DNA from: Octopus vulgaris
Lineage: Eukaryota
Assembly: GCA_951406725.2 (NCBI GenBank)
Contig: OX597838.1
Coordinates: forward strand, 40,734,001 to 40,798,000
Reading direction: 5' to 3'
DNA length: 64,000 nucleotides
Each line of letters opens with the position of its first letter. Within the stretch, counting starts at the first letter, position 1. Positions 3,286 through 64,000 of the stretch are shown piece by piece. The notes below the pieces were generated by a model, which saw only the letters and a list, made by a program, of their open reading frames with translations, was not told where the DNA came from and made no database searches. The position numbers were made by a program, and so were the translations under genes.

Positions 3286-3487
3286 GGGAGAGTTTACGAA
3301 AAAGACAAAAAACGAAGACAGGTGGTGTACAAAACAAACAGATGTATTAGTATAACGCTCATGAATAGAAAAAGTCTTTTACGTTTCAAGCCTACGCTCT
3401 TCTACAGAAAGGGACACAGAAAAAACAAGGAGAGAAACAAGGAGAGAAAAAATGTGTGTAGTGGCTAACGATCTATCATGGCGACTG
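3286..3487 (-). mobile_element. ~190-200 bp HHR-like short element, copy 1
   Basis: Minus strand CTTT-CTGTAGA-A-GAGC-GTAG-GCTT-GAAACGTA-AAAG; (TA)n on both sides; four more copies in the window. Confidence 0.8.
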
Positions 3488-4214
3488 TATATATATATAT
3501 ATATATATATATCATGGCGACTGTATATATATATATATATATATATTTATGTATGTATGTATGTATGTATGTATGTATGTATGTATGTATGTATGTATTG
3601 ATGGATATGTATGTAATATATGTGTGTGTGTGTGTGTAGCAGTATCAGCTGGAATTACACGTGACGGATATAGGTTTATACCGACCCTAATCCTATATCT
3701 TCCGCTCACCATCGGCCTCTGATGTATTTATAGATAATTGAAGATGTTGCTCCTTTTCTATCTTGTTTGCATACAATCTTGGAAAAAAGTTCAAGAAATT
3801 TAGATGTTTCTTTTTTTTTTTTTCAAAAAATCGTAAATCCAATTCAGGAAGGAGTAAATAAAAAAAACTTTTGAAATTGTATTTGGTCTGTCAATCAATA
3901 TTCAATAGAAATACAAAATATAAAAAAAAATGAAATGAAACAATAGTTTGAATTCTAATCGTTAATGCCAATTATCTCGATCTTAACTGATTTATCGAAT
4001 TTTGATTTGGTTACAAATCTCAGTATTGACCTTTTAACTTAATCTTGATTACAATATAAGCAAAACATCTTTTTTTATCGACTGGAAATTTGAAACTGCA
4101 AAACATTACGGAAAAATGAAAATAATAAAGAACAAAATAAAACCATGATAAAAAATTCAAAATGAAAAAAAATTCAAAAAGGAAGAAACAAAAAAAAAAT
4201 AAAGCGATGCTAAA

Positions 4215-4620
4215 CGATTCAGATAAGAGGCCATTTACTTTGGCCACCGAACAGATATCGCTGTACATTGCCTCTGAAAACAGAACTGAAACCGGCCGGT
4301 GCGAGGACAGCCCCCAAGTATTGATTGATGTTCGACCCTGTGAAAAGCTTTTGATTTATCCGAATTGATCAGGGCCCCACCCATGCCAGGTACCTTCCCT
4401 ACCCTCCCTATGATGTAGCGCATGAGATGTATTTTGTCGTGAATAAATCTTTTAGGGACAGCGCATGTCTGCGCGTCACCGACCAGCTTATCGACGACAA
4501 GCGCCAACCGCTTGGTTAAACACATTGGCCAAAATTTTATAATCTGCGTTCAGCAGAGTTATGGGCCTAAAATTATCTATTTGGTCCCCCTTGTTCGGGT
4601 CTTTTCTCAGCAGCAGCACT
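4215..4620 (-). pseudogene. Tx1/L1-clade LINE reverse transcriptase fragment
   Basis: Translations LLLRKDPNKGDQIDNFRPITLLNADYKILANV and GGALINSDKSKAFHRVEHQ (RT motifs), frameshifted. Confidence 0.8.
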
Positions 4621-4986
4621 GAGTATTCTCCCGTCCTGCTGCCAGTTGTGGTCCACAACCGCCAAGAGATCACCGAACAAATCTGGCCTACGAAGATAAA
4701 GCTCGAAGAGCAGACCTTCCAGACACCCCAGACTTCTCTCTTGTGCCAACCGTCACCGCGTCCCGTATATCTTCGGCTGTTATCGGCATTTCGCAGAACT
4801 CTGCATCCCTGGCCAAAAGGTGCAGCATATAGTCGAGGTATGGAGGTGAAATCTATCTCCATCCCCGACACACCGCGCGCCCCGCACACGCATGGTTTTA
4901 TGGTAAGAAGCTTGCTTCCCAACCAAATGGTTCTGGGTCCTGTTCCATCGCGTAGCACCTTGAGCAAGTGTCTTCGGTGCCGGTAC

Positions 4987-5390
4987 AGTATGTGATCTAC
5001 ATTCATGTTTCTGGTAGAGCTTGTGATCGACATTAGTTCAAATGGTATAGTTTGTGATCTTCACCAACTTTTCGATCTACATTTCAAATTCATCTATTTA
5101 TTCGACTTCCGGTTGGTTTGGTATATAAACCAAACAAAAACGACTCTTATGATTTAAGCAAGTTTGGTCATGATCCCATTGAAAGAAGTCGTATGAAAGC
5201 AAAAGAATTTTACACACAGGTTATTCGAGATGAAGAAGCTGCAAAAGAATATATCACACGCTGTGAACTCCTTGATGAACATGGTAATGTTGAACCATGC
5301 AGCAAATGTGGAGGAGAAATGGCAGAAAAAAACGAAAAAAAAAAAGAATAACAGGTGAAGCCCGTCCTATTTCTCGCTGTACAAAGAGTC
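4987..5390 (+). mobile_element. Merlin/IS1016-like transposase N-terminal fragment, interrupting a SINE (head 4880-4985, remainder 5405-5700)
   Basis: IRDEEAAKEYITRCELL...EPCSKCGGEM...RC zinc-ribbon pattern typical of Merlin transposases. Confidence 0.5.
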
Positions 5391-5711
5391 TAGATTTAAG
5401 TTGCTGTAGATCACTATGGCCTCGGGCCAACCAAAGCCTTGTAAGTGGATCTGATGGACGAAAACTGAAAGAACGCCATCATATATACATATATGTATAT
5501 ATTTATGTGTGTGTCTGTGTTTGTCTCCCCACTAACACTTGACAACAAATGCTGGTGTTGTTATATCCTCGTAACTTAGTGGTTCGGCAAAAAAAAACGA
5601 TAGAATAATTATTAGACTTACAAAGAATAAGTCCTGGGGTCGATTTCTTCGACTACACTTGAAGGCGGTGCTCCAGCATGGCTGCAAATTACTGGAAAAG
5701 TAAAAGAATAT

Positions 5712-61159: not shown

Positions 61160-61350
61160 GGGAGAGTTTACGAAAAAAACAAAGTACAAAGATAGGTGGT
61201 GTACAAAGCAAAGAGATGTATTAGTATAACGCTCAGGAATAGAAAAAGTCTTTTACGTTTCGAGCCTACGCTCTTCTACAGAAAGGTACAGAGAAAAAAC
61301 AAGGAGAGAAAAAAATGTGTGTAGTAGCTAACGATCTATCGTGGCGACTG
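61160..61350 (-). mobile_element. ~190-bp HHR-like short element, copy 4
   Basis: Same ends and core as copy 1. Confidence 0.8.
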
Positions 61351-63412
61351 ACTACATATATATATCTATATATATATAACTCTACTTGTGTGTCTGTATG
61401 TGTATCTGTGTGTGTGTGTCTGTGTGTTTAACTTCCCGGCACATCTCAGCCTAGCCAACAAATCGTAGAACCACCAAAAATGGATCACTTAAAGTTTAGG
61501 CGAATGAAAATTGAACTGCGCTATTTCTGTTCCGAAATTCATCTCGCAAGTGCAATAATGTGTTTGTTTAGGCCTTATCCCATCCATTGAATAGTGAACT
61601 TTACTCAGTCAGCTGTTTGACGTGAACTGTGTTCACCACGCGTGCAAGCATGCGTAAATTGCATGAAAAATAAGAAATCAAGATATAAAAACGAATCGCC
61701 GTAAACATTGTAGAAATTCGGCAAAGAAATGAATTTTCGGGATGGAGGGTTTTTCGTATTAATCATTTGGACTTTGTGAACACATACCAATTGTTTGCAT
61801 AACATTTTTAACGCTTTGAATTAAATGTGACCATTTTGCGTTGAGTCTGCAGTTTGAATCACTTTAACCAAATTTTAGCAGGCCGGATTTTTGATCATCA
61901 CGATACATCGCCAGCGACTCCCTGAAACTCTCCCCTGAAATCCCCGTTGAGAAATACTGATCTAAAAGAATAATTCAACAATGCAATTATTTGATCAACA
62001 AAAATTTATGAAACGCTTCTACGTATTTCCTATTGAGGAAATGGAACACATAACCGCAAAAATAGAGGGCATTAAAGCTTGATTTTAAAACCAAAATAAT
62101 TGAATTTTGGTTGAACTTCATCCAAGTTTAGCTTAATTCATGCGTGCATAGAACGCACGAGCGCACGAGCGCACGAGCGCACGAGCCGGGCAATAATGCT
62201 AGTATGTATATATATTTTTTTCGGTTAACAAGAATACAAGGACTTTTGTTACGTTTCCAAGTTGCCATTCTTTGATGAATTTAAGGACTCACTATCAAAT
62301 TCGTCAAACAAAATGACGACTTATAGAACCACTCGGCGTAGAACGTCTTTTAACAGAAGTTGGAGTCAATGCGAGGCATCCCGCGCAGACTTGAAGACAG
62401 GAGAACCGTCAGTGCATACGCGGACGACATTACCATAATGTTGCCAAACATGGAAAACCGAGAAAGTCATCACTATTCAGGAAGAATAACATGGAAAAAA
62501 ATTGTAAATTTTACTAATTTATAGTTTCTTTCTTAACTAGGATTAACATCAAAAGTAAAACGCCCTCTATATTACAGAGGGAGATATAATTGCGAATGTT
62601 AGCATAATTCTGAATCCGCGTTTCTTTTCTTATTTTCAGAAGTTTTGTTATTTATAAAACAATCGCGAATGTTTCTGATTAGCATCCATGCAGGCTAATC
62701 ATCAAACAAGGAGCTTAGTCGATAGAATGCCATAACAACGGACGCACTTACTGCGTTCTGACCAACTGTCAACAACCACTTTAAACCGTCTGATCCAAAC
62801 ATGATCAAACACATTCGTTTATCGCAAATAAAATACATAACTACGATATTCTAGCAATAATGAAAGCGAAATCAAGAAGAGGAATATGTTGATAGTGGTG
62901 CGGGGGGGAGGGGGCAGTCAGAGTATATAATACGAATGAGAATGACAGAGCAAGAAAATCAGTGAAGGGATGAAAGCAATATCAATAAATAAATAATGCA
63001 GTGTGTGTATGTGTGTTTGTGTATGTATATATATATATATATATATATATATATATATGTGTGTGTGTGTGTGTGTGTGTGTGTGTATGCATGTGTATAT
63101 ATATATATATATATATATATATATATATACCGGAGTAAACACATAAATGTGAATCAAGGTGGAAAAAAGAGTACTCAGATACCAGTGGTAGAGTAATATG
63201 CTTTATTTAAAGCAGCAGAAAATTCAACAAAAAAAAAAATTTCTTTTTGTTGAATTTTCTGCTGCTTTAAATATATATATATATATATATATATATATAT
63301 ATATATATATATATATATATATATATATATATATATATATATATATATATATATATATATATATATATATATATATATATATATATATATATATATATAT
63401 ATATATATATAT

Positions 63413-63815
63413 AGGCGTAAGAGTGGCTGTGTGGTAAGTAGATTGATTACGAACCACATGGTTCCGGGTTCAGTCCCACTGCGTGGCACCTTGGGCAAGT
63501 GTCTTCTACTATAGCCTCGGCCCGATCAAAGCCTTGTGAGTGGATTTGGTAGACGGAAACTGAAAGAAGCCAGTCGTATATATGTATGTGTGTGTGTGTC
63601 TGTATACGTTTGTGTGTCTGTATTTGTCCCCCCAACATCGCTTGACAAACGATGCTGGTGTGTTTACGTCCCCGTATCTTAGCGGTTCGGCAAAACAGAC
63701 CGATAGAATAAGTACTAGGCTTACAAAGAATAGGTTCTGGGGTAGATTTGTTCGACTAAAGGCGGTGCTCCAGCATGGCCATAGTCAAGTGATTGACTAC
63801 GAATAAAAGAATAAA
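63413..63815 (+). mobile_element. Major SINE copy
   Basis: Full length, directly after (TA)n. Confidence 0.85.
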
Positions 63816-63909
63816 AGAAAGAAAAAAATAAAGAATATATAAATATATATATATATATATAGAGAGAGAGAGAGAGAGAGAAAGAGAGAGAGAGAGAGAG
63901 AGAGAGAGA

Positions 63910-64000
63910 CGCCATGATAGATCGTTAGCTACTACACACATTTTTTTCTCTCCTTGTTTTTTCTCTGTACCTTTCTGTAGAAGAGCGTAGGCTCGAAACG
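63910..64000 (+). mobile_element. ~190-bp HHR-like short element, copy 5 (cut by the window end)
   Basis: ctttCTGTAGAagagcgtaggctcGAAACG. Confidence 0.8.

Follow-up and report, generated by a model that had tools for sequence, protein, structure and literature searches.

What kind of DNA could place some twenty hammerhead ribozyme-like motifs, set among TA microsatellites, within 64 kb of the Octopus vulgaris genome? The stretch analysed here, called the window throughout (G000:C25:40734001-40798000, contig OX597838.1, 64 kb), belongs to an assembly of 2.80 Gb in 227 contigs. Its GC content was 35%, and it contained 88 runs of (TA)6 or longer, versus 66 per 64 kb in a genome sample. The SINE common in it presumably resembles those of octopuses. 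In the original prediction, made from the letters of the window alone, the motifs were read as the work of autonomous Penelope-like elements (PLEs) together with ribozyme units free of open reading frames (ORFs), both colonising (TA)n. This interpretation was partly supported, and in its broad form it was right but already published: four ORF-less families with Penelope insertion hallmarks and at least three coding families were found, but the two commonest "units" proved to be tips of coding elements. Very probably, type I hammerhead folds sit here on two kinds of mobile DNA, the terminal repeats (pLTRs) of PLEs and ORF-less tandem units of 363–589 nt, both likely put into AT-rich microsatellites by a Penelope reverse transcriptase (RT)-endonuclease.

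Motifs were searched with a type I descriptor accepting the cores CUGANGA, UUGANAA, CCGANGA and CUGUNGA, an optional extra nucleotide, GAAA and UH, with minima of 4 bp for stem I, 3 for stem II and 1 for stem III (stem I of at least 3 in a relaxed run). The window gave 13 matches and none with any of three decoy core sets. In 100 block dinucleotide shuffles the mean was 0.18 and the maximum 2, and thus the similar density in shuffled sequence that had been named beforehand as grounds for giving up the prediction did not occur. Twelve of the 13 matches were among the predicted motifs (core position C3 at 3407, 7714, 8303, 12998, 20171, 27422, 27994, 28182, 34541, 41200, 44927 and 61281), and the relaxed run added 36487 and 49842. 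The thirteenth match (16176, a weak singleton) and an extra one at stem I of at least 3 (46687) are likely chance. At each of the 20 predicted places there was either a hammerhead core or a copy from a family that bears hammerheads, but the type I layout, with three stems around the core and stem I open, was found in 12 of them, or 14 with a 3-bp stem I; the remaining six (16455, 17071, 30064, 36161, 44650 and 63975) failed the descriptor. Two decayed copies (27043 and 49731) were absent from the predicted list. The hammerhead-shaped motifs of the window are real, and the original observation was partly confirmed.

The motifs fell into ten families (A–H, J and N), as had been estimated, but calling them unrelated was an overstatement: A is homologous to C (z score 9.6) and J to G (z score 13.1; 214 identical of 378 columns), so they represent at most eight lineages. 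Stem III, described beforehand as usually a palindrome, was a perfect one in A and C, B, G, J and N but imperfect in E, F and H. The canonical core CUGANGA with GAAA and UH was present in E, F, H and half of C, and was absent from A (U6), B and G (C4), and J and N (U3-A8). A plain canonical pattern caught 2 of the 13 window matches (4 with an extra nucleotide allowed) and 12 of the 50 in the genome sample described next, and the Rfam hammerhead models had zero matches at E ≤ 5 in three stretches holding five motifs of F, G and J, which bears out the expectation that canonical-core searches miss many. In an Rfam scan of the whole window, of which 150 of 431 rows were covered, microsatellite matches to microRNA models swamped the result.

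The variant cores were derived from the window, and the independent test was therefore a genome sample of 120 stretches of 10 kb (1.2 Mb) at fixed round coordinates on 27 large contigs. The scan proposed with the prediction, allowing U3-A8, C4, U6 and an extra nucleotide and followed by clustering, was run on this sample and gave 50 matches in 14 clusters, versus 1, 1, 3, 4 and 4 matches in five shuffles and 0, 7, 2 and 2 with decoy core sets. A single cluster, A plus C, held 29 matches. The density of 41.7 per Mb (31–55) extrapolates from 1.2 Mb to about 110,000 motifs genome-wide after background. From 27 and 24 sampled copies, 63,000 (42,000–92,000) copies of family A and 56,000 (36,000–83,000) of family C were estimated for the genome, and queries with nine stretches covering the listed families each returned at least about 40 scored matches and hundreds to thousands of candidates. 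At the genome rate 2.7 matches would be expected in the window, and 13 were reached by none of 20,000 resampled 64-kb sets; the window is thus about five times richer than the genome average, a local hotspot, and its density cannot be taken as general. With six matches near stretch edges left out, (TA)4 or longer lay within 250 nt downstream of 35 of 44 sample matches, compared with 23% of random positions; 26 of the 44 had such a run on the upstream side. The association with TA microsatellites therefore holds, although (TAGA)n or (TAA)n stands at the end of some copies in the window.

Families B, F, G and J are tandem units with periods of 589, 480, 363 and 363 nt, respectively, 96–100% identical across chromosomes and with one hammerhead per unit (up to six in succession). 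In natural two-unit stretches their longest ATG frames were 38–90 codons. Monomers cut at the predicted sites and folded as circles were 63–66% paired, with z scores of −6.8, −6.6, −7.1 and −8.5 for F, B, J and G (40 shuffles each). Judged by their sequences, the four carry every retrozyme feature that could be examined computationally and would qualify as retrozymes. In the window, family B forms an inverted insertion at 7319–8532 with both ends in (TA)n; its minus arm (7319–8388) holds two hammerheads (C3 8303 and 7714) with the C4 core and a 61-nt stem-loop II, and its plus arm spans 8395–8532. Stem-loop II insertions of 46–80 nt, many near 54–61 nt, were also seen in several unrelated families (L097, L139, L155, L163, L179, L020, L222 and window 7635–7714). 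The inverted family F insertion (27688–28369) has the canonical core CUGAUGA at C3 27994 (minus strand) and 28182 (plus strand), and its arms run to unit positions 306 and 187, where each of them meets TA-rich repeats. Family G is represented on the plus strand at 34429–34804 (core CCGAUGA, C3 34541), ending in (TAGA)n, and its homologue J by an inverted insertion at 44453–45194 with the core UUGAAAA, intact at C3 44927 (plus strand) and with a stem II mismatch at 44650 (minus strand); the arms of the latter stop at unit positions 267 and 197 in (TA)n. In J, G and three relatives (window 44905–44968 and 34519–34585; L023, L144 and L232), stem I continues past a three-nucleotide bulge and loop II starts with CAA, which we take to resemble the tertiary-contact layout of the Schistosoma hammerhead.

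Contigs of three runs guessed to be RNA covered the F unit in 19–26 of 30 bins; these runs came without a silent-stretch control and were not counted as evidence. In the F unit at L012:1622-1702, A>G differences were clustered in single contigs of low depth from two presumed RNA runs (X5 and X11), with two positions common to both; a larger run, its kind unknown, showed few or none of them. They may represent adenosine-to-inosine editing of the self-paired unit, alleles or errors.

The second kind of carrier is the coding element, complete in family N. This Neptune/Nematis-type PLE occupies 36378–41605 on the minus strand and consists of a 5' pLTR, a split ORF1, an ORF for RT and GIY-YIG, and a 3' pLTR ending in (TA)19. 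Its open frame of 781 codons (37363–39708, minus strand) lies between two hammerhead-bearing terminal repeats and contains both Pfam domains (RVT_1 at residues 259–442 and, C-terminally, GIY-YIG at 685–772) with a CxxxxCxxC linker; many further copies of this frame exist genome-wide. The linker cysteines are of the Neptune/Nematis kind, and the motif CX2-5CxxC, as defined in PMC8557442, was seen in the N frame and in frames of the family A parent. The two U3-A8 hammerheads lie on the minus strand at 41158–41206 in the 5' pLTR (UUGAUAA, C3 41200) and at 36445–36493 in the 3' pLTR (C3 36487, stem I of 3 bp). Hammerhead-bearing pLTRs, 5' truncation and two 3' ends, the tail, all of them features of EN+ PLEs, were observed; the N ends lie about 33 nt apart, and among the distinct copies seen 11 were long and 12 short. 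The single ORF of EN+ elements was not found in N, which has a separate upstream frame of 479 codons. In L285:2268-5968 and L286:2581-6281 this frame, which has no recognised domain, shares about 80 nt with the 781-codon frame, and in the window copy (39627–41055, minus strand) it is split in two. Contigs of four runs guessed to be RNA covered family N in 25–30 of 30 bins, with the same lack of control and likewise not counted.

Families A and C, predicted to be ribozyme units, are truncated Penelope ends and not retrozymes, since their longer copies continue into Penelope coding sequence; the candidacy of both the 190-bp family and the motif at 12968 as ORF-less retrozymes was rejected on these grounds. 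Longer A copies run upstream through an untranslated region (UTR) rich in C/A and pyrimidines. Of the ten best loci for the endonuclease region of the A parent, seven ran through the 3' UTR into a same-strand A tip (six of nine without the query locus), one had an inverted A copy, and two were interrupted; all four parent copies picked for long frames (820–853 codons) ended in an A tip with CUGUUGA. The parent protein contained RVT_1 in both copies scanned and aligned to the N protein over residues 20–756 at 27% identity, with no Pfam match to GIY-YIG at E 0.01. For family C, RT/endonuclease coding sequence, 53–63% identical to the parent of A, was present in two of three upstream stretches; the 5' flank of one copy, used as a query, matched mostly an unrelated repeat, and a second copy led to the parent. 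At L325:~500-1705, some 1.2 kb without coding matches separate two family C hammerheads; the locus may derive from the C parent by loss of its ORF and may be a nascent retrozyme. Thus families N, A and C each consist of pLTRs linked to coding sequence for RT/GIY-YIG, most copies being reduced to short 3' tips. The window holds such tips of A at 3286–3487 (minus strand; a 5'-truncated pLTR of Neptune/Nematis type with the minimal hammerhead CUGUAGA, C3 3407, predicted cut after 3380), 16334–16518 (minus strand; C3 16455, failing the descriptor through a mutated stem I), 20049–20234 and 61160–61349 (both minus strand with the U6 core; C3 20171 and 61281) and 63909–64000 (plus strand; C3 63975, cut by the window end). 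The tip of C, from a second Penelope family, lies at 12867–13078 on the minus strand (minimal hammerhead CUGACGA, C3 12998).

The two kinds of carrier are linked by the way in which the ORF-less units end. Many retrozyme insertions were two-armed, with the arms in opposite orientation and 3' ends that did not lie at the ribozyme cut. Counted from C3, the arms ended at about 187 and 306 nt (F), 204 and 267 (J), 211 and 266 (G), and 280 and 385 (family B), and they nearly always ran into (TA)n. Loci running off a stretch, duplicates and an ambiguous J locus (L044) were left out of the count; among the complete inverted loci, one arm ended at each of the two sites in 10 of 10 for F, 5 of 5 for J, 3 of 3 for G and 3 of 6 for B (21 of 24 overall), and the same was seen in all four readable loci of family E. 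B, F, G and J are thus ORF-less tandem units that stop at two fixed internal positions, where their 3' ends meet microsatellites. Penelope insertions carry a one-sided tail of 30–40 bp (PMC8557442), which has been attributed to reverse transcription starting at two internal sites and to AT-rich DNA being cut on both strands (PMC11167929). The two fixed end sites match this tail and these start sites, from which we infer that a Penelope protein integrates retrozymes by the same two-site priming. Its endonuclease would nick both strands of a (TA)n target, and each nicked end would prime reverse transcription at one of the two internal RNA sites, yielding an inverted two-armed insertion with one arm per site; multi-unit arms would be copied from circular or multimeric RNA during insertion. 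The hammerheads are predicted to cut multimeric transcripts to unit length, acting as dimers via the palindromic stem III and possibly aided by protein, and the U6 and C4 forms would do so slowly. Inverted two-armed retrozyme insertions with two fixed microsatellite ends were not found in the main texts of PMC7229834 and bioRxiv 10.64898/2026.07.22.740005.

The departures from the canonical core are systematic within families. In family A, position 6 was U in all 27 sampled copies and in 60 of 63 copies compared; among the 63, position 7 took all four bases and position 17 was A, U or C but never G. In 13 near-full copies (73–96% identical), 0 of 27 core and stem columns were polymorphic, versus 23 of 149 other columns (p = 0.016), and this variation has the appearance of a constrained hammerhead, U6 included. 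C4 was found in 17 of 17 copies of B, 12 of 13 of G and 13 of 24 of C, the other 11 C copies having U4. CpG decay was rejected as the source of this U4, as G5 was intact in 24 of 24 copies and other CpG letters had changed in 1–3 of 24, against 11 of 24 for U4. The U3-A8 cores of J and N are a published active covariation, and in the homologous units of J and G the 3-8 pair is kept, as U-A in J and C-G in G.

Several explanations compete with parts of this account. The motifs might be chance matches that a permissive pattern, assembled post hoc, picks from AT-rich repetitive DNA: the variant cores came from the very window under study, one decoy set scored 7 matches in the 1.2-Mb sample, the Rfam hammerhead models came up empty in the stretches scanned, and a few singletons (16176 and 46687) are probably of this nature. 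Yet the plain canonical core alone gave 12 matches in the sample and none in five shuffles, and the motifs lie where Penelope pLTRs would be expected to have them and number one to each tandem unit. Window shuffles, genome sample and one-per-unit spacing had already largely refuted the chance reading, which is hardly credible any longer. Alternatively, one pLTR-derived unit could have been inserted and then multiplied in place by local duplication, which would make the tandem arrays satellites and involve no mobilisation of multimers or circles, a scenario proposed in the discussion of the 2026 preprint (bioRxiv 10.64898/2026.07.22.740005). One A array has (TA)n inside its 222-nt period, and units inside arrays are near-identical (0.70 substitutions per pair versus 3.12 between arrays, the latter driven by one array), an identity by which monomer circles and multimer templates are not separable. 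Local duplication is nevertheless unlikely: multi-unit arrays stand on both arms of one inverted insertion (L011, with three and four F hammerheads), each arm ends in (TA)n at a fixed site, which recurs with 99–100% identity at numerous loci spread over different chromosomes, and the units fold as strongly self-paired circles.

A number of results weigh against two-site Penelope insertion of working ribozymes. The arm-end loci were the best BLAST matches rather than a random draw, three of six B loci break the one-arm-per-site rule, and the sole two-armed locus of N (L065) uses the long end twice. The four retrozyme units had no similarity to the three Penelope pLTRs of A, C and N (highest z score 1.3), and an F array (L016) alternates two unit types, so that a single monomer circle cannot have been its template. 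Column conservation in family C was borderline (p = 0.053). As to catalysis, a saturation scan found CUGA-turn mutants weakly active (PMC9901934), just one Xenopus retrozyme dimer out of nine cleaved (bioRxiv 10.64898/2026.07.22.740005), and a Penelope hammerhead cut only with the help of its protein and could be dispensed with for insertion in vitro, where hammerhead mutants left PAc insertion unaffected (PMC11167929). A serious contender, a little short of an even chance, keeps this anatomy but holds that the U6 and C4 motifs (families A, B and G and half of C) have little or no catalytic activity, persisting because insertion needs no cleavage or because the fold is a protein-binding or folding signal. 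The weakness of CUGA-turn mutants fits this alternative, as does the behaviour of the natural U4C and A6C variants, which are slow but detectable (PMC3088659, PMC7151607), and U6 could have been fixed once, in the founder of family A. On the other side, variation in A follows catalytic tolerance (position 7 free and 17 never G in 63 copies) across copies with 73–96% identity, the 3-8 pair is maintained between J and G, and C4 arose in at least three non-homologous families. Less likely than not, though far from negligible, is the reading in which the U6 hammerhead, one of the two commonest forms in the genome, functions as a ribozyme in vivo, either dimeric or assisted by the Penelope protein, and was selected through the whole radiation of its Penelope lineage.

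The remaining hammerhead families of the window are older or less complete. Family E occurs as an older inverted insertion at 26761–27545, with the canonical core plus an extra A in the plus arm (C3 27422) and a minus arm at C3 27043, and as a second inverted insertion in (TAA)n-rich sequence at 49564–49960 (C3 49842 on the plus strand with a 3-bp stem I; C3 49731 on the minus strand with GAAA mutated). An (AAT)n run at 26901–27014 sits within stem-loop III of the minus-strand hammerhead at C3 27043, so that an ATT repeat belonging to the ribozyme itself seems to have given rise to this microsatellite. Directly after the second insertion comes a 2.3-kb (AAT/GAT)n satellite (49977–52259). Family D is an old decayed copy on the plus strand (29990–30110, C3 30064) with relatives 76–89% identical and cores mostly canonical; a fragment resembling it (17071–17107, plus strand) retains the core, stem II and a near-palindromic stem III but is not an intact motif, the stem I partner being absent and a SINE-like repeat coming next. 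Family H, hammerhead-like with a canonical core, lies at approximately 35865–36335 on the minus strand (C3 36161) and has an A-A mismatch at the base of stem II, as in seven of the eight H copies seen. For B, F, G, J, D, E and H, no parent element was found among the stretches compared, in which few Penelope families were sampled.

Other remains of mobile elements lie between these. A decayed GIY-YIG-region fragment of another Penelope-type element (33336–33674, plus strand) is 52% identical to the family A parent protein. The open frame at 55205–55624 (minus strand) has a cysteine pair and presumably resembles the decayed GIY-YIG region of another Penelope-type clade; it had no Pfam match, and part of the region is duplicated near 56123–56386. 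Decayed frames at 18131–18946, 20912–22428 and 4488–5060 (minus strand) look to us like LINE-type reverse transcriptase fragments, and Pfam found nothing in any of the three. Short inverted structures were observed at 2653–2814, 56812–56877 and 63204–63273; two adjoin (TA)n, no hammerhead was found in them, and they are possibly Penelope-type insertions without a ribozyme.

With about 110,000 hammerhead-like motifs estimated, some three quarters of them escaping the plain canonical pattern, the octopus stands against 235 Rfam hammerhead matches in the giant squid genome (PMC6962438). Beyond that giant squid count, literature searches provisionally found no cephalopod hammerhead survey. U6 and repeated C4 cores at tens of thousands of copies offer a ready test of whether Penelope hammerheads need fast catalysis. 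The one-arm-per-site rule is structural evidence on how retrozyme arrays arise, through Penelope enzymes during insertion or through local duplication afterwards, a question that is testable here since young near-identical families and long open RT-endonuclease frames occur in one genome. If U6 works and C4 was fixed independently, the hammerhead core consensus would widen, and standard searches would undercount animal hammerheads several-fold; retrozyme insertions would be the first genomic record of ORF-less ribozyme circles integrated by two-site Penelope priming.

Much of the anatomy is known from other systems. Minimal hammerheads in Penelope repeats, with a short stem I, U3-A8 cores, an extra nucleotide after A9 and a two-base palindromic stem III, were described by Cervera & De la Pena 2014 (PMC4209133). 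As here, many families were found per genome, mostly as solo truncated copies by the thousand and as opposite-strand pairs 100–700 bp apart, and families A and C fit the consensus layout given there. They differ through U6 in family A and C4 in half of family C, neither of which was met with in the passages of its supplement alignment, and in their estimated number, about 60,000 each, against the 2,000–9,000 per genome quoted there. Among natural core variants (Perreault et al. 2011, PMC3088659; PMC7151607), U3-A8, U4C and A6C are known with reduced activity, but as rare singles in viroids, phages and bacteria, whereas C4 is fixed here in whole families. A natural A6U core was not found in these two papers, in the supplement passages of PMC4209133 or in literature searches, and neither a U6 core kept across a Penelope lineage nor C4 fixed in several families was found in print; both negatives are provisional, supplements having been covered in part.

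Compared with EN+ PLEs (Craig et al. 2021, PMC8557442; Frangieh et al. 2024, PMC11167929), the coding elements share RT with a C-terminal GIY-YIG, the CX2-5CxxC linker, hammerhead pLTRs, 5' truncation, inverted 5' copies, a 30–40-bp tail at one end and microsatellite or AT-rich targets. The upstream ORF of N is separate and overlaps the RT frame, whereas EN+ elements are described with a single ORF, and the "tails" of the retrozymes are longer (about 55–120 nt). Animal retrozymes were defined in PMC7229834, with mussel units of 350–390 bp, coexistence with Penelope elements and, in the heading of its axolotl section, up to 120,000 copies. They were interpreted as non-autonomous Penelope derivatives that coexist with PLEs by Li, Clavereau & Pollet (bioRxiv 10.64898/2026.07.22.740005). 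Like these non-LTR retrozymes, B, F, G and J are ORF-less, self-paired tandem units of low GC with one type I hammerhead each and PLEs alongside. J and G (363 nt) are close in length to the mussel units, and F (480 nt) and B (589 nt) exceed the 170–400 nt of PMC7229834 but fall within the 51–972 range of the preprint. Unlike known animal retrozymes, three of the four families have non-canonical cores. U3-A8, the extra nucleotide, the palindromic stem III and the link between retrozymes and Penelope are thus already in print. Provisionally new are the U6 hammerhead in a large Penelope lineage, the repeated C4 cores and the insertion signature that ties retrozymes to Penelope priming.

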